The notes: generated from the letters alone by a model not told the origin. 64,000 nt of DNA from Muribaculaceae bacterium (GCA_029071345.1 JAIEAO010000002.1:23947-87946); one strand, 5' to 3'. Counted from the first letter of the stretch, positions 24,020 through 34,100 are shown. A program made the numbers and translations.

Positions 24020-24328
24020 ATGAATTTAATGCATATAATTTACTCTGAGAAAGATGATTTTTTAAGAGGACGGGAGGCAAGTGTAAAGCCTGACGATAAG
24101 GAAATAATAATTACACACATCGTTCCGGAAAAGTTCCGGGGTGACATAACGGCTCTTACCAAGTATGTTGGTGAGGCCAGTTTCGAAAGCGGACTCTGTA
24201 TTGAAGTCTCGTTATCTGAATTACTGGGCATTATTCCAAGAAAAAGGAAGAGGAGGGATGCCTATGCTGCACTCATAAAGTATTTAAAAGATGAGCGCAA
24301 TATTACTTTAATAATAAAATCAAAATAG
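24020..24328 (+). CDS. Hypothetical basic protein
   Basis: 102-aa ORF, first of a tightly packed run; basic patch PRKRKRR. Confidence 0.65.
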   Translation: MNLMHIIYSEKDDFLRGREASVKPDDKEIIITHIVPEKFRGDITALTKYVGEASFESGLCIEVSLSELLGIIPRKRKRRDAYAALIKYLKDERNITLIIKSK

Positions 24329-24329
24329 A

Positions 24330-24776
24330 ATGAAGAAGAAAATTTTTATTACCGGAGAGGTTCGTGAATACAAAACTGAGAATGCCAAAGATTTTTGCAA
24401 AGGGATAGAGGATTATATAAAGGATAACCTTGTTCCGGCAGATAGTGCTGATAACGTTACTGTCTCTACCTTTGAAAATGCTACGGATGATTTGACTATA
24501 ACGTTCAATTTTGGAACAGGGAAACATATTGAGAAAGGGATGATCTCAAGAGAAATGTACCGTTGCTTTACAGGTGAAGGTACTAATTTTAAAGCACATT
24601 ATTCTATTTATTGGTCATTGAGTTTCGGGTCATCCTACCCAATGAATGTTTTCTTCCCGGTTGATGAGACTATAATCTCCCACAAGAAGAACTCTCACTT
24701 CTATGGAGCTGACAGATATAAAAATATCAGCATAAACGAGAGCCCTTATAATCTTATCGTAAACATTAAATATTAA
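24330..24776 (+). CDS. Hypothetical protein
   Basis: 148-aa ORF starting 1 nt after the previous stop. Confidence 0.65.
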   Translation: MKKKIFITGEVREYKTENAKDFCKGIEDYIKDNLVPADSADNVTVSTFENATDDLTITFNFGTGKHIEKGMISREMYRCFTGEGTNFKAHYSIYWSLSFGSSYPMNVFFPVDETIISHKKNSHFYGADRYKNISINESPYNLIVNIKY

Positions 24777-24781
24777 CTGAA

Positions 24782-25357
24782 ATGGAATATACATTTATAA
24801 AAAATAGTGAAGCAGCTAAGGATCTTTCTCCTGAATGGATGGACGCTTTCGATGATATAATGCCGAAATGGTTGGAACTTTGTGTTCCGGCGTATAATGC
24901 TTGTAAAAAGAGAGGTGTATCATTTTTTGAAGTCTCAAATTATATCGACGATTGGAGCAATCCTGAGAAATTTGATGAAGACGGTTTTTCTTACATTTTA
25001 TGGCGCAAGCCAAATTGCATAACCAAGATATCTTTTGACGGTCATGGGAAATGGGGTGCTTGGGATTGGAAAACACTTATGAGGTGTGAATACCCCAATC
25101 TGTATGATAATTATACTCCGGAATATATGCGAACGGCGACAAAACTATCTGATTTTGGAGTATATAACTGCTATTTTTGGCGATATATGAATAGAAGAGA
25201 ACCTTATAACTATGTGGCCTTAAAAGTAAGGGATTATTTCCGAATATTGACCAATGATACAGAAGTGCTTTTTTCATTGGGACGTAAAAGTTATATTGCC
25301 TTTGATGAGGCCGGGAGGAAATATGGAGACCAATATTGTTACAATATTGATGGATAA
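24782..25357 (+). CDS. Hypothetical protein (Trp/Tyr-rich)
   Basis: 191-aa ORF, 5 nt after the previous stop. Confidence 0.65.
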   Translation: MEYTFIKNSEAAKDLSPEWMDAFDDIMPKWLELCVPAYNACKKRGVSFFEVSNYIDDWSNPEKFDEDGFSYILWRKPNCITKISFDGHGKWGAWDWKTLMRCEYPNLYDNYTPEYMRTATKLSDFGVYNCYFWRYMNRREPYNYVALKVRDYFRILTNDTEVLFSLGRKSYIAFDEAGRKYGDQYCYNIDG

Positions 25358-26321
25358 GAACAATAGCTCTGGAGGTTTTCTCCAGGGCTATTTTGATTAT
25401 AACCGTGAAAACCTTAGAAATATGATTAACACAACTATTAGTATAGCTAAACGATTGGAATACACCAAATACGGACTGGCAGATAAATCCGTGTATGATG
25501 TACTTGGGATGATCCAGCGCGGTGATATGATACTGTATGACCCTGAATGTGGAGAATATGATCTGAAAACGATAACTGAGGCCATCCGGCGCCAACCGGA
25601 TCCAGAAATTCAAAACGAATGGAAGGCTCGATTTATGCCTGTCGTGTTTTTCAACGGAATATGGGATGGCTCAAAAATAAGCAAATATTCCTGCATCACT
25701 GCATTGGACTTTGATAATATTCATAGCGAGGAAGATCTGAACAATACGCTTCTACTGCTGAAGAGTTCACCATTCGTATTGGCGACTTTCAGAACCTTCA
25801 AACCAAAACGTATCAAGGCTTTGATAATGCACGACAATCCTGATCCCACCCTGCATAAAGAGATGTATGCAGAGCTGATCAATTTATTTGGCACATCAGG
25901 TCTTGATACCAGCTGCAGTGATTTAAGCCGAAAAACATATCTTCCTTGGGATGATGAGATATGGATTAATACGAATTGCACCCCATATCAATTTGTTTCA
26001 AGTCACCCTGTAGTCGGAACACAGACGAAAATGATATATAAAGGTAAAAAACAAAAATCCCCATACAGCATAATCAATATTCTGAACAGCTCATGGCGAA
26101 AGAATCACACCGAATACTGGAAGGAAGGTCAACGTGCCCGGTCAGTCTTCAAGTGCGCCTGTCAATTTTGTGAATATGGTGTACCTCGAGATATGGCGGA
26201 AGATTATTTCCTTACAGGAGGATGGGAAGCTGACGACTTCACTGCAGATGAGATTCTAAAGCATGTGCGCGGAGCCTACGATTATAATAAGAATAGATTT
26301 GGTTCTAAAGATTTCGTATGA
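25350..26321 (+). CDS. BT4734/VirE N-terminal-like primase-polymerase with PriCT-like C-terminus
   Basis: MPVVFFNG..YSCITALDFDNI, LDTSCSDLSR.TYLPWD; EGQR..SVFKCACQFCEYGV; start probably 25350 or 25323 rather than 25254. Confidence 0.72.
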   Translation: MDKNNSSGGFLQGYFDYNRENLRNMINTTISIAKRLEYTKYGLADKSVYDVLGMIQRGDMILYDPECGEYDLKTITEAIRRQPDPEIQNEWKARFMPVVFFNGIWDGSKISKYSCITALDFDNIHSEEDLNNTLLLLKSSPFVLATFRTFKPKRIKALIMHDNPDPTLHKEMYAELINLFGTSGLDTSCSDLSRKTYLPWDDEIWINTNCTPYQFVSSHPVVGTQTKMIYKGKKQKSPYSIINILNSSWRKNHTEYWKEGQRARSVFKCACQFCEYGVPRDMAEDYFLTGGWEADDFTADEILKHVRGAYDYNKNRFGSKDFV

Positions 26322-26493
26322 TCGCAAATATGAGTTTAGGGTACCGCAAGAACATATCAAGGAAGTCTATCCCCTCAAACGGCGGAAGCCTAAACACACG
26401 CAACAAAATATTCCAAACACGCCCTCTTTATAAGGGAAAACTGAATATCATTAAAAAAGTGTGCAGGTCCGCTACCGTAAACACCTAATAAGT

Positions 26494-28386
26494 ATGAAGA
26501 AAGATATTATACAAATTCCAGAGAATATCAGATATATGTCTCAGGCTGCTCAAATATTACAGAATAGACTGCCCTTCAAGGGAAAATATATTCTTGATAA
26601 ATCGTTAACAGGTTGTGGTGGAACGGAGTTCTTTATAAACTCCGGCCGCCCTCTCGTTCTGATTTCTCCAAGAACGGGAGTACTCTTGAATAAGAAATCA
26701 CAACATCCGAAATGCCACTTATTCCGTAACTTGATAAAAAAGGATGTAACGCAATTAAAGGATGATCTAAGATTATATCTTGACAAATGTAGAAGTGGAA
26801 TATTCGGTCATTCTAAAACACCAATAATATTCGTTACCCTTGATTCAGCTAAATATGTCATTGAGGAGCTTAAATTCAGGGATATAATTGACAATTTCCT
26901 TTTCCTTACCGATGAATTTCAATGCCTGATAAGCGATGCTGCATTCAAAGGTAAGGTAGATTTGGAATTTCTGAGTATGCTTGATGCTGAAGCAAAGAAT
27001 ATATGCTATATGTCGGCGACACCTATTGATGACACCTATCTGAGTGCGTTGCCGGAATTTCAGGATGTGGATTATTACAAACTTGAATGGCATCCGAGCG
27101 TAATAGTAGAACCAACCGTCAAGGAGATAATGATGAAAAAGGGTGAATCGGCTCAATCCATAGTCACAAAAATAATCTCAGGCTATCGTAAGGATGGATT
27201 CTTTGCACGGAAGATTGTAAACGGAGTCACGTGTGAAGCGAAAGAAAGTGTATTCTTTATCAATGAGGTTAAGACAATTCTTCAGATAATTAAAGATAAT
27301 AGTTTATTGCCAGATGAAGTTACGGTCTTAATATCGTCAAGTAATAAATATGCTGACAGGCTGGCTAAAATGGGGTATAAGATCGAGAATCAATCCGCCG
27401 ACAGAGATAACCCTAAAAATACAGCCTTCACTTTTTGCAGTAAGGCAAGTTTTGAGGGAAGAGATTTCTATAGCTATTCGGCCTTTACATATATCTTCCT
27501 TGACGGGACAAAGGATTGGGAGGTCCATGACACCGCTATCGAGATTCCCCAGATGTTAGGTAGACAGCGATTGGACGATAATCCTTTCAAATATAATGCC
27601 TTAATATATTATAGGACCAAACCGGTTGTGCAGGGGAAAGTGGAGTATATGAAAGCCATTGAGGATAAACTTAAAGAATCCCGGACACTTGTGGATAGTT
27701 TTAACAACGGCGATGAGTGTCTAAGGAAATCATTGGTTAATATGGTAAAGAATCGGGATCCAAACAATCAATATCTTACCAATTATCTTGATGTGATTGA
27801 TGATGTGAATGGGAATTACGGGCTCCAAACAAATCTTCTTGTGGCGGTAGCAGAACATAACCTGGCCTGTAATAAAGCACATTTCTACAGCAATCCGCTA
27901 TTTCTTACAACAGCCATACACAATCAGATGGCGACCTATAATGCAAAAACTAATGAATTGCGCAACTTCGAGAAAAATTTTAATCATTCAGACTCATTTA
28001 AGAATCGAATGGAACTCTACAGCACTTTCCTGACAAACAATCCTAACTACATGCAAGTGTTGTTATGCAACCCCTTCATTGAACCGAAATACCATAAATA
28101 CTATGACTTATTAGGACCGGCTGAACTATACCGGCTTAATTATGATGAACAGGCAATCGAGAGGGAATTATACAATAGGGAAATAATTCTGCAATGTCAA
28201 GCTTACTTTGAACGCGGTCGGCTATATACCGCCGGTGAAGTCAAATCAGCACTCCAATCCATTTACGACAATCTTGGATATAAAAAGACGGCGACAGCAA
28301 ACCAACTCTTGGATTATATCAGAGTTGAGATTGTCCAGCGAACCATGCCTGACGGATCACGCCCACGCTTGTTTGAGATACTATAA
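26494..28386 (+). CDS. SF2 (DEAD-like) helicase-fold protein with variant Walker A
   Basis: LTGCGGT, LTDEFQ, MSATP, FEGRDFY, QMLGRQR; ATG at 26494. Confidence 0.75.
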   Translation: MKKDIIQIPENIRYMSQAAQILQNRLPFKGKYILDKSLTGCGGTEFFINSGRPLVLISPRTGVLLNKKSQHPKCHLFRNLIKKDVTQLKDDLRLYLDKCRSGIFGHSKTPIIFVTLDSAKYVIEELKFRDIIDNFLFLTDEFQCLISDAAFKGKVDLEFLSMLDAEAKNICYMSATPIDDTYLSALPEFQDVDYYKLEWHPSVIVEPTVKEIMMKKGESAQSIVTKIISGYRKDGFFARKIVNGVTCEAKESVFFINEVKTILQIIKDNSLLPDEVTVLISSSNKYADRLAKMGYKIENQSADRDNPKNTAFTFCSKASFEGRDFYSYSAFTYIFLDGTKDWEVHDTAIEIPQMLGRQRLDDNPFKYNALIYYRTKPVVQGKVEYMKAIEDKLKESRTLVDSFNNGDECLRKSLVNMVKNRDPNNQYLTNYLDVIDDVNGNYGLQTNLLVAVAEHNLACNKAHFYSNPLFLTTAIHNQMATYNAKTNELRNFEKNFNHSDSFKNRMELYSTFLTNNPNYMQVLLCNPFIEPKYHKYYDLLGPAELYRLNYDEQAIERELYNREIILQCQAYFERGRLYTAGEVKSALQSIYDNLGYKKTATANQLLDYIRVEIVQRTMPDGSRPRLFEIL

Positions 28387-28566
28387 TACCTTGCTACCCC
28401 CTTTGACACGGATATCAATAAAAATTGACATTGGGTAACAATGCTATCTATCAGTCATTAAAAGAGTTGACACCTTGATACCACTAATTCGAAATTTCAA
28501 AAAATCAGTCTAATACTACATTTTACAGCAACTCTCCAGGGCTATACTAAAAATTGTCAAACGATA

Positions 28567-29202
28567 TTACCCTAGAGGATTCTGTATTTTACAAAGCATC
28601 ATAACAAGAACTATTGCACATGCCCCTAAAAATGTGATGAGATTGTAGATGCTATCGGATAACATAAAGTGCCATTTTACATATGTCCAGCGCCATTTCC
28701 GCCTCTGGTAAGAAGATATGGGAGTGCTACTTTTTTTCTTTTCTTCTTTTATCGTTGCCCAGTCAAAATCTGTAGTGGAATGGTTAAGACTGCTATTCTT
28801 GATTATTTGGGCATATTGGCTATTGAAATTCATAAGCACTTCATAGGTTTCCGGTTTATCCTTTGAAGTGTAGATTCTGATTTTCTTTTCGAGATTTGCC
28901 AATTCCAAGGCACATCTATGATATTCAGCAGCCTTAGCATCATACTTTAGTTGAGAGATGATCAAGGAGAGCACAAGCACGAATGCCGAAAGACATACAG
29001 TCAGAACCGTAATAGGTTTATCATCAAGCTTTAGGGATGGAATAAACACAAGCAGATTAATCACAATGATTTCCAAAGAAAGCATAGCCACACACAATGT
29101 AGAGGCATTGTGACATCGTTGCATCCTTCGTGAGGCTTCAAATCGTGCAGCTGCCGTTCGCCAGCATCGTTGAGCCATGTTTTGTAAACTTTCTCTATCC
29201 AT
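28567..29202 (-). CDS. SLATT-domain membrane effector (SLATT_5-like)
   Basis: WRTAAARFEASRRM, two adjacent TM helices, A.EYHRCALELANL, LNHSTTDF, third C-terminal TM helix. Confidence 0.82.
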   Translation of the reverse strand: MDRESLQNMAQRCWRTAAARFEASRRMQRCHNASTLCVAMLSLEIIVINLLVFIPSLKLDDKPITVLTVCLSAFVLVLSLIISQLKYDAKAAEYHRCALELANLEKKIRIYTSKDKPETYEVLMNFNSQYAQIIKNSSLNHSTTDFDWATIKEEKKKSSTPISSYQRRKWRWTYVKWHFMLSDSIYNLITFLGACAIVLVMMLCKIQNPLG

Positions 29203-29217
29203 GATATATTAAAAAGA

Positions 29218-29347
29218 AGAAGGAAGGGGATAAAATTTGTCACGGAGCAAATCCGCAAATGCGGCCGACATCTTCCGATGCGATTAAGTTTTACCAACAT
29301 TGGTTTTTACACCAATCCTACATTAAATGTAGCCACCCCTTCCTTCT
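29218..29347 (-). ncRNA. Candidate RT-associated structured ncRNA
   Basis: Perfect 12-bp terminal inverted repeat AGAAGGAAGGGG/CCCCTTCCTTCT enclosing five hairpins; fills the RT-SLATT gap. Confidence 0.7.
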
Positions 29348-30716
29348 ATGATATTTCTCCAACGCTTATTACACTTGATTTTATAAATGATTGAATCAAA
29401 ATCTTGAACCGTCTGTCAACTTCTTTATCAGACAAATCGGTAAACTCTGAACCCTTCAGATGCCCGAACTTTTTTAAGTATCCTAACTTTTCTCCTCGTT
29501 CGGTAACCTTGTCAAAGTCTATCAAAATCGATCGGCCCATATTCTCGCGGAGATCATAGTAGGTACGAACAATAGAATTCACCTCCAGGATGGAATAGAG
29601 TTCTTTACCTAATGATTTCCTGATAAGCCTATCCAATTGATACAGAATCTTTAAGTCGTTCATCTGCTGGAAATAGGCAATCCAACCATAATTATGATTA
29701 TTAACCTTGAATCCTGAGATAAGGAAATTCAGATCAGTCTTGGCAAAGTCAAGAAACTCTTCATCATTCTTTATATAGCGCGGTCGAGAGACTGAATCCT
29801 CATACTGACTCTTTATCTGATAACATCTTCTTACAAGCCTGTCGGCAAACCGATTCTTATTAGATTCTTTGATTGAAAATATTTCGCCATCAATCTTATA
29901 GCCAATAAATTCGAATTCGTCTCCACCGATCACACCGGTCTTGGTCTTCTTTGGCGACAATGACAAACCGAGATTATGATCTGTAATGGCTGAAATTAAG
30001 ATTCCTTCAAAATCACGGTTTTCAGTGTCCGCAATCAATATATCGTCCACATATCTTAAAAACAACGCCTTCTCAAAGGTGTTGCTGATTTGCTTATGAG
30101 CACCGTCGAAATAGATTTCAGCGAGAATATTGGATATGGACAGACCTTGAGGTACACCAAGTATATTAATATCGTTTCCAGGTTTCTCACTGCAATTGAG
30201 TGTAGGCACAGTAATTGCGTTAAGCACAAGCTTTAACGCCACGGCATCAATTCTACCTGCCAGATATTTTGTCAGTACTGAATGGTTTATATTATCGTAG
30301 AAAGCCGATATATCAGCCTTGTAAAAATAAACCTTATGTCTCTCTCCCGCCTTTTCATCTAAGAATTTAGCTAATCTAAATATATACCGGTTGGGAGTTT
30401 CTCTTACTATGCCAAGCGTATCGCTCAAATATCCGTTCAGAAGTGAGAGAACAAATCTATCTCTAACATTCGGGATAGACAACACACGAGGGTACTTCCC
30501 GCGCCCTTTCAGAATCAACTTTTCAGCATAAGGCGAGAACTTATATTCACCACTGATGCATTTTTCGCGAATCCAATCCTTCTCTTTCTCGAACGTGTCT
30601 CGATATTTAGTTGGTGAAATATGATCCCTTCCACCACCCTTCTTGGGCAGTATCTTCTCATCGTAAAACGACATGAAATCAATCGAATCGATATATTCAG
30701 GAAAGGACCTCATCAT
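29346..30716 (-). CDS. Reverse transcriptase, UG/DRT defence type (DRT10/UG17-like)
   Basis: PRVLSIPNVRDR, KADISAFYDNINH, GVPQGLSISNILAEIY, RYVDDILI, FEFIGY; no maturase/endonuclease domain, no retron VTG; SLATT neighbour. Confidence 0.9.
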   Translation of the reverse strand: MMRSFPEYIDSIDFMSFYDEKILPKKGGGRDHISPTKYRDTFEKEKDWIREKCISGEYKFSPYAEKLILKGRGKYPRVLSIPNVRDRFVLSLLNGYLSDTLGIVRETPNRYIFRLAKFLDEKAGERHKVYFYKADISAFYDNINHSVLTKYLAGRIDAVALKLVLNAITVPTLNCSEKPGNDINILGVPQGLSISNILAEIYFDGAHKQISNTFEKALFLRYVDDILIADTENRDFEGILISAITDHNLGLSLSPKKTKTGVIGGDEFEFIGYKIDGEIFSIKESNKNRFADRLVRRCYQIKSQYEDSVSRPRYIKNDEEFLDFAKTDLNFLISGFKVNNHNYGWIAYFQQMNDLKILYQLDRLIRKSLGKELYSILEVNSIVRTYYDLRENMGRSILIDFDKVTERGEKLGYLKKFGHLKGSEFTDLSDKEVDRRFKILIQSFIKSSVISVGEIS

Positions 30717-30855
30717 AATACCTTATTAACGTCTTCTGTGCATTGCTTATTATTGGCAATCACCCAATTTATTATTGGATTTAGGGATCCTACAATATTT
30801 CTATTTATTTTTAATGGAAATATGTATTCGTGTTGGCAAATTCGAGATTAAACAT

Positions 30856-30863
30856 TATATTTG
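30856..30863 (+). promoter_or_regulatory. Bacteroidetes -7 promoter box pointing toward the att site
   Basis: TATATTTG matches TAnnTTTG. Confidence 0.45.
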
Positions 30864-30905
30864 CGGCAATGATTAACAAGCGTTTTTCAGGCACGTTGAT
30901 GTGAT

Positions 30906-30927
30906 TTTGTGTACCTAATTTGTGTAC
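30906..30927. repeat. 9-bp direct repeat TTTGTGTAC, putative integrase arm-type sites
   Basis: 30906-30914 and 30919-30927, about 40 bp inside the tRNA fragment. Confidence 0.6.
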
Positions 30928-30964
30928 TTGAATAAAGAACAAGGATATATCGCGCTGATTTTAA

Positions 30965-31004
30965 GGGACGTAGAGGTCGGGCGTTCGAGTCGCCTCACCC
31001 CGAC
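30965..31004 (+). pseudogene. 3' half of tRNA-Pro (probably CGG), likely attR
   Basis: GGGACGTAG-AGGTC-GGGCG-TTCGAGT-CGCCT-CACCCCG-A: 3' anticodon arm, T-arm and acceptor 3' strand; no D-arm or CGGGGTG 5' strand upstream. Confidence 0.82.
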
Positions 31005-31011
31005 TTTTTGA

Positions 31012-31048
31012 AAAAAAGAGAATCAGCCAAAAGCTGGTTCTCTTTTTT
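31012..31048 (+). terminator. Intrinsic terminator after the tRNA fragment
   Basis: AAAAAAGAGAATCAGC-CAAAA-GCTGGTTCTCTTTTTT. Confidence 0.8.
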
Positions 31049-31120
31049 CTTTATATCAGATAGTGAAGCTACTTGCTATACATTGGAGGAATTCACTATG
31101 ATTTATGACAAATAAGATAT

Positions 31121-31142
31121 AGAAGGGGGCTGGCCCCCTTCT
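31121..31142 (-). terminator. Hairpin just downstream of the GH2 stop
   Basis: AGAAGGGGGC-TG-GCCCCCTTCT. Confidence 0.7.
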
Positions 31143-31144
31143 TT

Positions 31145-34100
31145 TTATTCGGGGATGAATCGCAGGGTGTAAGTCAACTGATCTGCTCCCTGATAGTTTC
31201 CTGGGTAAGGCACTTCGTATTTGGGAAGGCATTTGTCGGAAAAACAACTGCTGTTGCCAATTCCGCGCACCCAATAATCGAAATGCATGAAGGTCTCGTC
31301 GTGCCTTTTCAGTTCATCCCAATGCTGACGGGCGTAATGTGTGCTTAAGTTCCAATCCAAGTCATTATAATGGCTGGCAGAGAAGCTGACAGGACCTTGT
31401 GTCTTGACATGAAGTTTCTGACCTGTCGTGCGATTGTAGAGTGTAAGATCACGCAGGTCCTGACGATCACCATAGCTCTGCGGATGAACGTTCTCGTCAA
31501 TCATTCCGTCAATTGTGGTGCTGTATCGACCCAGATATGATCCTGTCTTGCGGTCTGCATAGTTTGACCACGGACCGCGCGCATAGTATTCTATATCTTC
31601 AAATCCGGGAGCTAAAGTCCATCCCATGCCGAGACGGCGCAATCCACGGCGCTGCGGCTCAAAAGTGGCTTTTACATCCATCATACCGTTGGGATAAATT
31701 GTATAATCAACGGTGTAATTGCTTTTCCAACCCTCAGCTTTCATTGAAGATGTTACTTTGTCACCTTCAAGCGTGGGAGCTTTTATCAGTGAATGCGATT
31801 CGATTCCCGTGGCGGCATAGTCATATTTACCGTCGCCCTGGCGATTGCATCCGTCTGCACCCTCGCCGTCACCCTGAGCTCCGTCGCTATCATTGTCGAT
31901 ACGTCTGAAATCGTTATATTCAGGTGATGCCGCCAAGAGTTCGTTGCCTTTATATTTATAACTTTTCAGCATGCCGTTCTCATCAAATTCGATAATGAAA
32001 TTATGACCATAGACACGGTTGCCATCTACGGTAATGTCTCCGGATGCTACAACTTCTTCAAATCGCGGACGCTTGGTAAGTATGAATTGCTCGTCGGCCA
32101 AAGCATATCCGGCATCTGCCCACGGAGTGGATTCTTTAAGCAAAAGTTCGGTTATCAATGAGTATTCAGCGTTGTCATCAAGCTTTAAATCAAGAGGAAT
32201 TTTAACCTCTTTGACAGACAATGCCGGAACAGAAGGAAGCGCCAGCTCTCCTGTCTCCACAACTTTGCCATCTTTCAGAAGACGGTATCCTAATTTGAAG
32301 AGATCGGAAAGGTCGGTGTGCGGATACTTGTTGCGGATAGTCAGCACACCGGTATTTTTGTCAAATGTATTAAAATCAACGTGCTGGTAGACCTTCTTCA
32401 CCTCTGTCAGTTTAGCGGTCCAAGCCCTGTCAGGAGTTATGATTCCATTGTTAAGATAATTGCCCTGGAATCCGTTGCGGTTGCCGGGATTAGCCTGCTG
32501 TGAAGGGTCATAATCATATCCTCCGGTCCACGCATGGAAACCTCGGTCTGAAATCACTTTCTCATCCTTAATGCTCTTAGGATCATATACAGCCTGGTCA
32601 ACCCAATCCCATATACAAGCTCCTATTGTGCCGTCGCTATTCTCTATTTCCGCCCAGTAATCGCTGAGATTTCCTACCGCCTGTCCCATGGCATGGGCAT
32701 ACTCGCATATAAAAAACGGTAATTCTTTGTGGCCGTTTTTCATCTGTTTAACAGCCTCGACAGAGGGATACATCCATGACAGCATATCGGTGGAATTGAC
32801 ATCCTCCGAGTTTTCATGACAATGAATAGGACGCGGATCTAATTTCCGCACCTCTCTTGCACAGGCCTCCATATTCGCTCCCCGTCCGTTCTCGTTGCCG
32901 AGCGACCAGAATATCACACTTGGATGATTGCGGTCGCGAAGCACCATGCGAACATCCCTGTCTACGAATGCGCCGGTCCACGCCGAGTCGCGCGTCAGCC
33001 CCTGATTGCCGTGACATTCAAGGTCTGCCTCATCCATCACATAAAGACCATAGGCATCCGCAAGGGCATACATCTTCGGGTCGCGCGGATAATGGCTCGT
33101 GCGCATTGTGTTCAGGTTGGCCTGTTTCATCAAGGATATATCCTTTTTCATTGTCGCGACATCTACATACCGGCCAAACACAGGATGCGTATCATGGATG
33201 TTGGCACCCTTGAAGAACACACGTTTGCCATTGATGGTCACATATCTTTTCCCCGGCTCATTGTGATAGCCGATATTGCGGAAGCCATATTTGGTGTTGA
33301 ACACCATCTCCTCCTTGCCGTTCTTATCGAGCTGACTGATATTGACATTGTAAAGATATGGATTCTCAGTATTCCATGGGATTAATCCTTTCAAGACATC
33401 CGTTGAAAGAGCGACAGTTTGATCCTTACCGTTTAATTTTACAGTCTGCTTTGAGGATGCCACCGTTTTTCCATCATTATCCTTCAAGGCGATGCAGAAA
33501 GTCTTCACGCCCTTCTCTTTGTCACGGTTGTCAATATCAAGCACCACATTCAACCGTCCGGAAGCTGCATCCTCACTCTGATTGTCAGTGAAAATATAAT
33601 GATCACGGATAAACGTTTTAGGCACAGATTTCAGGTAGACATCGCGGTGAATGCCGCTCATGCGCCACATATCCTGACCTTCGAGGTAAGACCCGTCGGT
33701 CCATCTGTAACAGCGTACGGCAAGTTGGTTTTCCCCTTTACGCACCAATTTCGTAATGTCAAACTCCGCATCATTGTTCGAGCCTTGCGAATATCCGGCA
33801 AACTTACCGTTGACCCACACGGCAATACCACTATAGGCGCCGTTAAAATGAAGGAAGACGCGGTCTTTGTCCCAGCCTGCCGGCAAGTTGAAAGAGCGGC
33901 GGTAGAATCCCGTTGCATTGTGGTCCGTAACGCCATGCTCCTCATATCCGTGGCGGGCAAACGGAGGTTCATTATGAAAAGGATAATCAGTGTTGACATA
34001 AGCCGGCATATTATATTTACCCGCCATCTCCCAACTCATCGGCACCTTAATTTCATCCCAGCCGCTATCATCGATATCTGTTTGCTGCCATTCTGAAGGA

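Follow-up and report, generated by a model that had tools for sequence, protein, structure and literature searches.

A 64,000-nucleotide (nt) stretch of DNA from a Muribaculaceae bacterium (GCA_029071345.1 JAIEAO010000002.1:23947-87946; hereafter the window) carries a 130-nt RNA element on its minus strand, at 29218-29347, in the gap that separates a UG17 reverse transcriptase (RT) gene from a SLATT_5 gene. We find very strong grounds for reading this element as a conserved RNA, supported by covariation, that acts as the noncoding RNA (ncRNA) of a DRT10 anti-phage system, where it would hold two RTs and template a protein-primed complementary DNA (cDNA) made of tandem repeats. The RT partner and the template role of the RNA are most likely on the ground of its membership in the UG17/DRT10 family; RT binding, the making of tandem-repeat cDNA and protection from phage at this locus are predictions from DRT10 of Escherichia coli. 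The locus is a further member of the published DRT10 systems, with the gene order of subtype UG17-B. Its kind was described in 2025-26, so that it is a rediscovery; with it, a probable gut Bacteroidales genome gains a DRT10 system in which RT precedes SLATT.

The abstracts and text sections of the published reports provide the framework for this assignment. UG17 was linked to SLATT by Mestre et al. 2022 (PMC9226505) and was named DRT10 by Tang et al. 2025 (10.1101/2025.10.16.682844), according to whom defence needs the RT, SLATT and a 137-nt, RT-bound ncRNA upstream of SLATT, and the cDNA is primed from the C-terminal Ser456 of the RT, or from Tyr444 in another homologue. DRT10 ncRNAs are 137-143 nt long, have a basal stem-loop (SL1) and carry a template loop with an A-B-A' pattern after a stable stem-loop (Tang et al. 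2025; Sanchez-Nieto et al. 2026, 10.64898/2026.04.29.721553; Ramirez et al. 2026, 10.64898/2026.06.29.735271). Two RT-ncRNA complexes have been solved, in which two RTs occupy one pseudo-symmetric RNA (Ramirez et al. 2026), and a 2:1 assembly of RT and ncRNA is likewise described by Chen et al. 2026 (10.64898/2026.10.08.757509). In the former, Loop A is 12 nt long and yields an abortive product, and Loop B, 19 nt long, is divided into a 5' linker (2 nt), an A-B segment (9 nt), an A' segment (4 nt) and a 3' linker (4 nt); the flanking stem-loops are the reference from which the template window is measured, and either loop can be a productive template if it is given the A-B-A' pattern (Ramirez et al. 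2026).

Sanchez-Nieto et al. 2026 define three UG17 subtypes. In UG17-B, reported from Pseudomonadota and Bacteroidota, the RT gene precedes the SLATT gene across a gap of ~200 base pairs (bp), with putative promoters before both genes, and the ncRNA lies upstream of SLATT, where it is visible in RNA sequencing of Methylotenera mobilis. In the SLATT-then-RT subtype, the ncRNA is equipped with a promoter of its own (Sanchez-Nieto et al. 2026); it is located upstream of both genes, is needed in trans and is bound by the RT (Sanchez-Nieto et al. 2026; Tang et al. 2025).

Fold and covariation of the RNA element

The RT gene (29346-30716), a gap of 143 nt (29203-29345) and the SLATT gene (28567-29202) follow one another on the minus strand. 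The minus-strand sequence at 29218-29347 is an exact match to the one transcribed in a first-pass annotation of the window, which had proposed a template RNA of five hairpins, closed by a perfect 12-bp stem that runs from the RT stop codon to 15 nt before the SLATT ATG. The coordinates and sequence of that stem, here called P1 (SL1 in DRT10 terms), agree with the proposal. The 5' arm AGAAGGAAGGGG (29347-29336) pairs perfectly with the 3' arm CCCCUUCCUUCU (29229-29218) across 12 bp, the A and the G of the RT stop codon TAG are the first two bases of the stem, and the SLATT open reading frame (ORF) starts at 29202, 15 nt past the stem's end. When the segment 29203-29360 (minus strand) is folded with RNAfold, the closing stem and the inner hairpins are recovered with a free energy of -48.3 kcal/mol, compared to -33.9 +/- 3.7 kcal/mol for shuffled sequences (z = -3.88), and 1 of 200 shuffles folds as well. 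Within the window, no perfect 12-bp inverted repeat other than P1 has a gap of 20-150 nt, but ~0.7 perfect 12-bp inverted repeats are expected by chance in 64 kilobases (kb). Consequently, the P1 stem alone is not significant, and the reality of the RNA element rests on its conservation.

The element's layout follows a two-loop plan at the level of secondary structure. Numbering the RNA so that position n is window coordinate 29348 - n, the 5' arm of P1 (positions 1-12) is followed by stem-loop a (CUACAU UUA AUGUAG; 29318-29332, positions 16-30) and stem-loop b (AUUGGU GUAAAA ACCAAU; 29299-29316, positions 32-49), and then by the 15-nt single-stranded Loop A, GUUGGUAAAACUUAA (29284-29298, positions 50-64). 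Stem-loop c (UCGCAUC GGAA GAUGUCGG; 29265-29283, positions 65-83), which varies in length and sequence among homologues, and the G+C-rich stem-loop d (CCGC AUUU GCGG; 29253-29264, positions 84-95) precede the 23-nt Loop B, AUUUGCUCCGUGACAAAUUUUAU (29230-29252, positions 96-118), which is the predicted template loop. The 3' arm of P1 (29218-29229, positions 119-130) closes the structure.

We gathered UG17 loci from a species-representative genome scan, a metagenome scan, genome searches by taxonomic rank and plasmid records. The species-representative scan gave one locus with 74% RT identity (L001), and the metagenome scan gave 23 loci, with seven at 53-58% RT identity (L031-L037) and five at 30-35% (L038-L042). 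Among the rank-based searches, whose counts all include genome G000, the family-level search matched 27 of 401 genomes at E <= 1e-30, four of which, at E <= 1e-100, are true UG17; at E <= 1e-60, the genus-, order- and phylum-level searches matched 4 of 220, 2 of 401 and 3 of 401 genomes. Eight plasmid records matched the RT at ~30% identity, five of which were retrieved, and the viral contig and phage record collections gave no relative of the RT. After dropping identical copies, the close clade comprises six distinct gaps (the window, L001, L002, L003, L035 and L036), all of which hold a 127-134-nt RNA at the same place.

The six RNAs covary in the closing stem and in three of the inner stem-loops. 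RNAalifold, applied to a plain MAFFT alignment, recovered 26 pairs, eight of them with a compensatory change. We then used the closing stem together with hairpins 1, 2 and 4 (stem-loops a, b and d) to build a covariance model, R1, and realigned the six sequences to it; an alignment fitted in this way leans towards the structure of R1, and in it 155 of 155 cells of the 26 pairs in the four helices are standard pairs. Both sides have changed in 9 of the 26 pairs (four in the closing stem, one in stem-loop a, three in b and one in d), a degree of pairing and compensation that was reached by none of 500 shuffles. Slid controls, where the 3' partner was shifted by 1-3 columns, had 42-59% pairing and at most two compensatory pairs. 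All 12 pairs of P1 are formed in every comparable cell of the six sequences, the one other cell being an alignment gap. Stem-loop a has four conserved pairs, stem-loop b has six, and the four pairs of stem-loop d are formed in six of six sequences. The compensation in the closing stem is visible in the raw sequences as well, where its two arms read AGAAGGAAGGGG/CCCCUUCCUUCU, AGAAGGGAGGAG/CUCCUCCCUUCU, AGAAGGAAGGGA/UCCCUUCCUUCU and AGAAGGAGGGGA/UCCCCUCCUUCU. Because stem-loop b contains G-U and U-G pairs, the strand of the RNA is the minus strand, the same as that of the genes. Covariation across homologous gaps was, along with refolding, among the checks named in the first-pass annotation, and the absence of conservation that would have spoken against the element was not what we saw.

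The other proposed features fared unevenly. Hairpin 3 (stem-loop c) appears in five of six single-sequence minimum free energy (MFE) folds, with L035 as the exception, and its stems differ in length and sequence (CAUC/GAUG, CCUC/GGGG, CCUU/AAGG, CCUGG/CCAGG). Its GNRA loop, GGAA, is present in the window copy only, and homologues have other loops, so that it was rejected as a conserved feature. The fifth hairpin, AUUUG/CAAAU, was rejected as a conserved helix; it is paired in 70% of cells with no compensatory change, 98 of 500 shuffles match it, and the pairing of one slid control is better than that of the hairpin itself. Its region is most likely the single-stranded template Loop B. Mapped on the DRT10 plan, the 15-nt linker of the first-pass annotation corresponds to the single-stranded Loop A, and what had been listed as a fifth hairpin plus UUUAU corresponds to Loop B. 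The RNA had also been called unannotated, which is correct for Rfam, but its class had already been published.

The same architecture recurs beside distant UG17 RTs. A search with R1 gave 12 true matches in 31 sources, all within the close clade from which the model was built, and we identified the RNAs of five distant loci (L042, L054, L055, L056 and L058) by eye and by folding. In four of them (L042, L054, L056 and L058), where RT is followed by SLATT, each RNA has a distinct closing stem of 10-13 bp, located at the RT stop codon or just past it, together with four to six inner stem-loops and two unpaired stretches. The fifth, L055, also has a 10-13-bp closing stem, four to six stem-loops and two loops in the gap beside its RT gene. 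Beyond a short, UGGUAAA-like motif in Loop A, the sequences are unrelated. At SLATT-then-RT loci on plasmids and metagenome contigs (L059, L061 and L040), an equivalent RNA is located upstream of SLATT. The gene order of L055, from one Bacteroidota genome, is of another kind: SLATT, a 233-nt gap with a structured RNA (L055:2836-2983, minus strand) and then RT, which puts the RNA downstream of SLATT, where both arrangements described in the published text sections put it upstream.

Flanking genes and the template loop

The flanking genes supply the family membership that supports the template role claimed for this RNA at the outset. The 456-amino-acid (aa) RT matches the PADLOC model RT_UG17 across residues 3-449 (E=6.3e-103, 342.9 bits), with every other RT family at <=90 bits, and it contains the Pfam domain RVT_1. 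Its catalytic motif YVDD (residues 222-225) is intact, and Y222, V223, D224, D225 and S456 are invariant in four of four aligned RTs. The last residue is Ser456, the predicted priming residue. Among nine RT-then-SLATT lineages, the last RT codon encodes Ser in eight and Tyr in one, and these terminal residues match the published priming residues S456 and Y444. The NCBIfam models for Drt3a and Drt2 were considered for the RT and rejected, both scoring far below their cut-offs. A search of PDB sequences with the RT found no DRT10 entry; its matches, at E ~1e-8, were confined to RTs of the group II intron and retron types. The SLATT_5 protein is a two-transmembrane effector of 211 aa, with matches to Pfam SLATT_5 (E=1.3e-39), PADLOC RTasSLATT (E=1.8e-34) and NCBIfam SLATT_5 (138 bits, cut-off 60).

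We quantified where direct repeats begin within the putative template loop, using 12 ncRNAs, nine of which are of the RT-then-SLATT form or related and three of the SLATT-then-RT form. Loop B was defined as the stretch from the last stable stem-loop to the 3' arm of P1, and the longest direct repeat with a period of 3-12 was scored at each start offset. The summed repeat length is 38 at offset 3, the fourth nucleotide of Loop B, compared to 17-32 at other offsets, and none of 5000 shuffles, each taken at its best offset, reaches this signal. The result also holds for the nine RT-then-SLATT-type RNAs alone and for ten lineages after removing close kin. At this offset, CGUUUCG is followed by CGUUU in L002, CGUUCG by CGUU in L036, AUUUUCG by AUUUU in L058, ACUA by ACUA in L054, UUAACAGGG by UUAA in L042 and UCAACGGUAC by UCAA in L059. 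Between L002 and L036, one U has been lost from both repeat copies. The Loop B of L055 reads UACU-UACU. That the putative template starts at the fourth nucleotide after the boundary stem-loop, among RNAs of unrelated sequence and under either gene order, carries the published 'geometric' template rule further.

Loop A behaves differently. It has no positionally fixed direct repeat (2377 of 3000 shuffles reach its signal), and it keeps a sequence motif, GGUAARACU, in the close clade (the window, where it reads GGUAAAAC, L001-L003 and L036). The UGGUAAA-like form of the motif persists in L058, L042, L054 and L056, whose stems share no sequence. A motif kept across such wide divergence suggests a sequence-specific role for Loop A.

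In the window, the rule would place a 5' linker AUU at 29252-29250, an A-B segment UGCUCCG at 29249-29243 and an A' segment UG at 29242-29241, and the cDNA would then consist of 7-nt repeats of CGGAGCA; we put forward both the template and the repeat unit as weak predictions. Stem-loop d is the predicted template-boundary stem-loop, by analogy with SL5 of the E. coli system Eco3. An alternative hairpin, UUGCGGA/UCCGUGA at 29240-29258 (minus strand), was flagged by a terminator scan; it competes with stem-loop d and would swallow the predicted template. Because L001 retains it and L002 and L036 do not, we left it out of the consensus. It might be relevant to template access, or it might be a product of chance.

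Since A is only 2 nt long in the window, rival readings of the template stay open. The RNA could be a DRT10 ncRNA that uses another template, either a 16-nt unit between AUUU (29252-29249) and AUUU (29236-29233) in Loop B, or a 7-nt unit in Loop A, where UAA-AACU-UAA contains a 3-nt repeat with a period of 7. We consider this a serious possibility, although it falls short of being the probable one. AUUU...AUUU exceeds UG...UG in length, L001 retains it with a period of 15, and it appears to covary in L036, where it reads AUUC...AUUC with a period of 17; for Loop A, the published finding that either loop can be productive applies. However, a 16-nt unit that begins at offset 0 is at odds with the fixed spacing that other lineages show after the boundary stem-loop, and Tang et al. 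2025 report that activity was weak when the B segment had 10 nt and absent when it had 20 nt. The Loop A repeat is absent from L001, L002, L003 and L036, and, besides lacking a positional repeat signal, Loop A is conserved in sequence, whereas template loops are described as poorly conserved in the text of Tang et al. 2025.

Proposed mechanism and competing readings

Drawing on E. coli DRT10, we propose the following mechanism for the favoured reading, that of a two-RT template RNA. The closing stem (SL1) would stabilise the RNA, and the two loops would each be seated in the active site of one RT, with synthesis primed from the hydroxyl of the last RT residue, here Ser456. In Loop B, the RT would copy a short template that starts a fixed distance after the G+C-rich stem-loop d; the end of the cDNA would then re-anneal to A', the downstream copy of the template start, and the cycle would repeat. 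Loop A, with its GGUAARACU motif, would give short abortive products only. As it accumulates, the repeat DNA would, by the proposed scheme, switch on the SLATT membrane effector and abort the infection.

The position of the RNA within the operon raises the separate question of its effects in cis. The U-rich spacer UCUUUUUAAUAUAUC (29203-29217) extends from P1 to the SLATT ATG and may form both the RNA's 3' end, or its terminator tract, and an unstructured SLATT leader. P1 is followed here by the run UCUUUUU, and most homologues also have U-runs after P1; such a run could mark the RNA's 3' end or could damp read-through into SLATT. Because P1 overlaps the RT stop codon and is followed by this U-run, an ncRNA carried on the operon transcript might work as a switch, with the assembly of two RTs and ncRNA in cis controlling both RT translation and SLATT read-through and thereby coupling toxin dose to the state of the ribonucleoprotein. 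A terminating ribosome and the folded, RT-bound RNA would then be mutually exclusive, with the U-run located just before the toxin gene. We raise this idea tentatively and consider it improbable; the abstracts and text sections of the DRT10 reports describe no such switch or control layer in cis. A cis-regulatory role and a template role of the RNA are compatible with each other.

It is less likely still that the main function of the element is in cis, as a leader or terminator governing SLATT expression by way of a roadblock or attenuator between the RT and toxin cistrons, with no template role in trans. The start of P1 inside the RT stop codon and the U-runs beyond it would suit such a device, and the dose of SLATT, as a toxic effector, should matter. 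On the other side, the RNA of published SLATT-then-RT systems is located upstream of both genes, is required in trans and is RT-bound, as their reports describe it, and two loops and four inner stem-loops are conserved, which goes beyond the needs of a terminator. The region around the SLATT start is unpaired, the 15 nt before the ATG being A/U-rich, and the start codon is 4 to 36 nt away from P1, depending on the homologue. By these last observations, the first-pass suggestion that the RNA may gate SLATT translation also finds no support in the sequence.

That the element is instead a retron msr/msd RNA, a remnant of a group II intron or a DRT9-type poly-U template RNA is highly implausible. 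The RT does have weak similarity to the proteins of such systems, with 105.9 bits on the group II intron model TIGR04416, 26.8 bits on NCBIfam retron_St85_RT and 38.3 bits on Drt9, but the first two scores are far under the curated cut-offs (300 and 235 bits, respectively), on which grounds we rejected both identities, and all three are far under the 343 bits of UG17. Rfam gave no intron or retron match in 27500-32000 at E values up to 10, and Loop B does not have the long U-tract of a poly-U template. A functionless, chance inverted repeat in an A/T-rich intergenic gap, for which the expected ~0.7 repeats per 64 kb would speak, is refuted by the compensatory changes in 9 of 26 pairs across homologues and by the same architecture, in unrelated sequence, beside distant UG17 RTs, and deserves practically no credence.

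Several considerations temper the reading of the element as a DRT10 ncRNA. A perfect 12-bp inverted repeat is, as calculated above, close to what chance provides in a window of this length; the covariation comes from six distinct sequences that are all kin; and R1 detects none of the distant loci L042, L054, L055, L056 and L058. In the repeat test, the loop boundaries were set by hand from MFE folds, and the offset was noticed before the test, to which the best-offset correction was applied. In the window itself, the A/A' repeat is only 2 nt (UG, with a period of 7), which chance easily gives, and the AUUU...AUUU repeat of Loop B (period 16) and the UAA-AACU-UAA repeat of Loop A compete with it. 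The likeness to the published architecture is drawn from text descriptions rather than from an alignment to Eco1-3, and the UG17-B assignment from gene order and phylum rather than from an RT tree. Finally, the existence of the RNA and the position of its ends are predictions from the DNA sequence.

Genomic setting and relation to known systems

The first-pass annotation had the RNA processed from the operon mRNA, which is a conjecture about its origin. An Rfam scan of 27500-32000, at E values up to 10, found nothing in the gap between RT and SLATT; its ten weak matches are all outside the gap and far under their gathering scores. A scan for sigma-70-type promoters found no minus-strand site directly upstream of the RNA, which is a weak negative. 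The Bacteroides-type -7 box has the consensus TAnnTTTG, and none was seen by eye in the 110 nt upstream of the RNA, which is equally a weak negative.

The module appears beside a repeated tRNA fragment. At 30967-31058 (plus strand), the window contains a duplicate of the last ~40 nt of tRNA-Pro(CGG) together with ~55 nt of the downstream terminator hairpin. The intact tRNA-Pro is located 54.9 kb upstream, at the start of the same contig (L064:2-76), and the two copies are same-strand direct repeats with the appearance of attachment sites. The right-hand copy has the RT-RNA-SLATT module ~250 bp to its inner side, and ARAGORN finds no tRNA in the window itself. Next to SLATT and convergent with it, a block of genes with little or no family match (24020-28386, plus strand) is possibly cargo of the same mobile island. 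It includes a protein of 355 aa with a BT4734-like N-terminal domain (25254-26321, plus strand) and a 641-aa ORF (26461-28386, plus strand) that has no Pfam, PADLOC or NCBIfam match.

Related loci have neighbours and defects of their own. In L003, the ORF directly upstream of the RT (L003:315-1382) encodes a 355-aa Fic/DOC protein whose C-terminal domain is a winged helix; the same ORF is found in L002 and L031-L035 but not in the window. In L001, SLATT is followed by a tyrosine integrase. L035 has an aberrant, 503-aa RT frame that runs on through the RNA (L035:1201-2712), and two substitutions in its RNA weaken stem-loop c and Loop A; L057 has an RT with two in-frame stops (L057:67-1290), located at a contig end so that its gap is missing. 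The L035 and L057 copies show signs of decay.

A reader using the sequence alone had correctly singled out the RNA component of an RT defence system. To this we add the positional template rule and the Loop A motif, which are small additions that leave the picture of DRT10 function unchanged. The closest known counterparts are the E. coli DRT10 systems Eco1-Eco3. Like the window, they combine a 456-aa UG17 RT that ends in Ser with a SLATT partner and a ~130-140-nt RNA immediately upstream of SLATT, whose 5' and 3' ends form a basal stem. Both RNAs have five stem-loops in total, and both have a stable stem-loop directly 5' of the 3'-proximal loop, with direct repeats a few nucleotides later. 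The single-stranded loops are 15 and 23 nt long in the window, compared to 12 and 19 nt in Eco3, and the predicted 5' linker is 3 nt long, compared to 2 nt in Eco3. The window RNA has its extra small stem-loop in the first half (P1, a and b, followed by c and d in the second), and the Eco3 RNA has it in the second half. Unlike Eco1-Eco3, the window has the order RT, RNA, SLATT, with an RNA that starts inside the RT stop codon, and its A/A' repeat is just 2 nt.

The UG17-B systems described by Sanchez-Nieto et al. 2026 from Methylotenera mobilis JLW8 and from an E. coli H120 prophage locus share the RT-then-SLATT order, with a gap of ~200 bp compared to 143 nt here, and a structured ncRNA is predicted upstream of SLATT. 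Their covariance models work only within the subtype, according to the same text, as does R1 within its own clade. DRT9 (UG28) is, like DRT10, a Class 2 UG RT system that is protein-primed and has its template loop in a multi-stem scaffold, and Tang et al. 2025 note that the structures of DRT10 ncRNAs resemble those of DRT9. It differs in its conserved poly-U template and poly-dA product, and the window RT scores 38 bits on Drt9 compared to 343 on RT_UG17. More remote is telomerase RNA, which has no sequence or structure homology to the DRT10 RNAs; DRT10 is bacterial and protein-primed, with two RTs per RNA. Nevertheless, telomerase RNA resembles the predicted logic of DRT10 in its short internal template, its downstream realignment segment, equivalent to A', and its boundary stem (Tang et al. 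2025).

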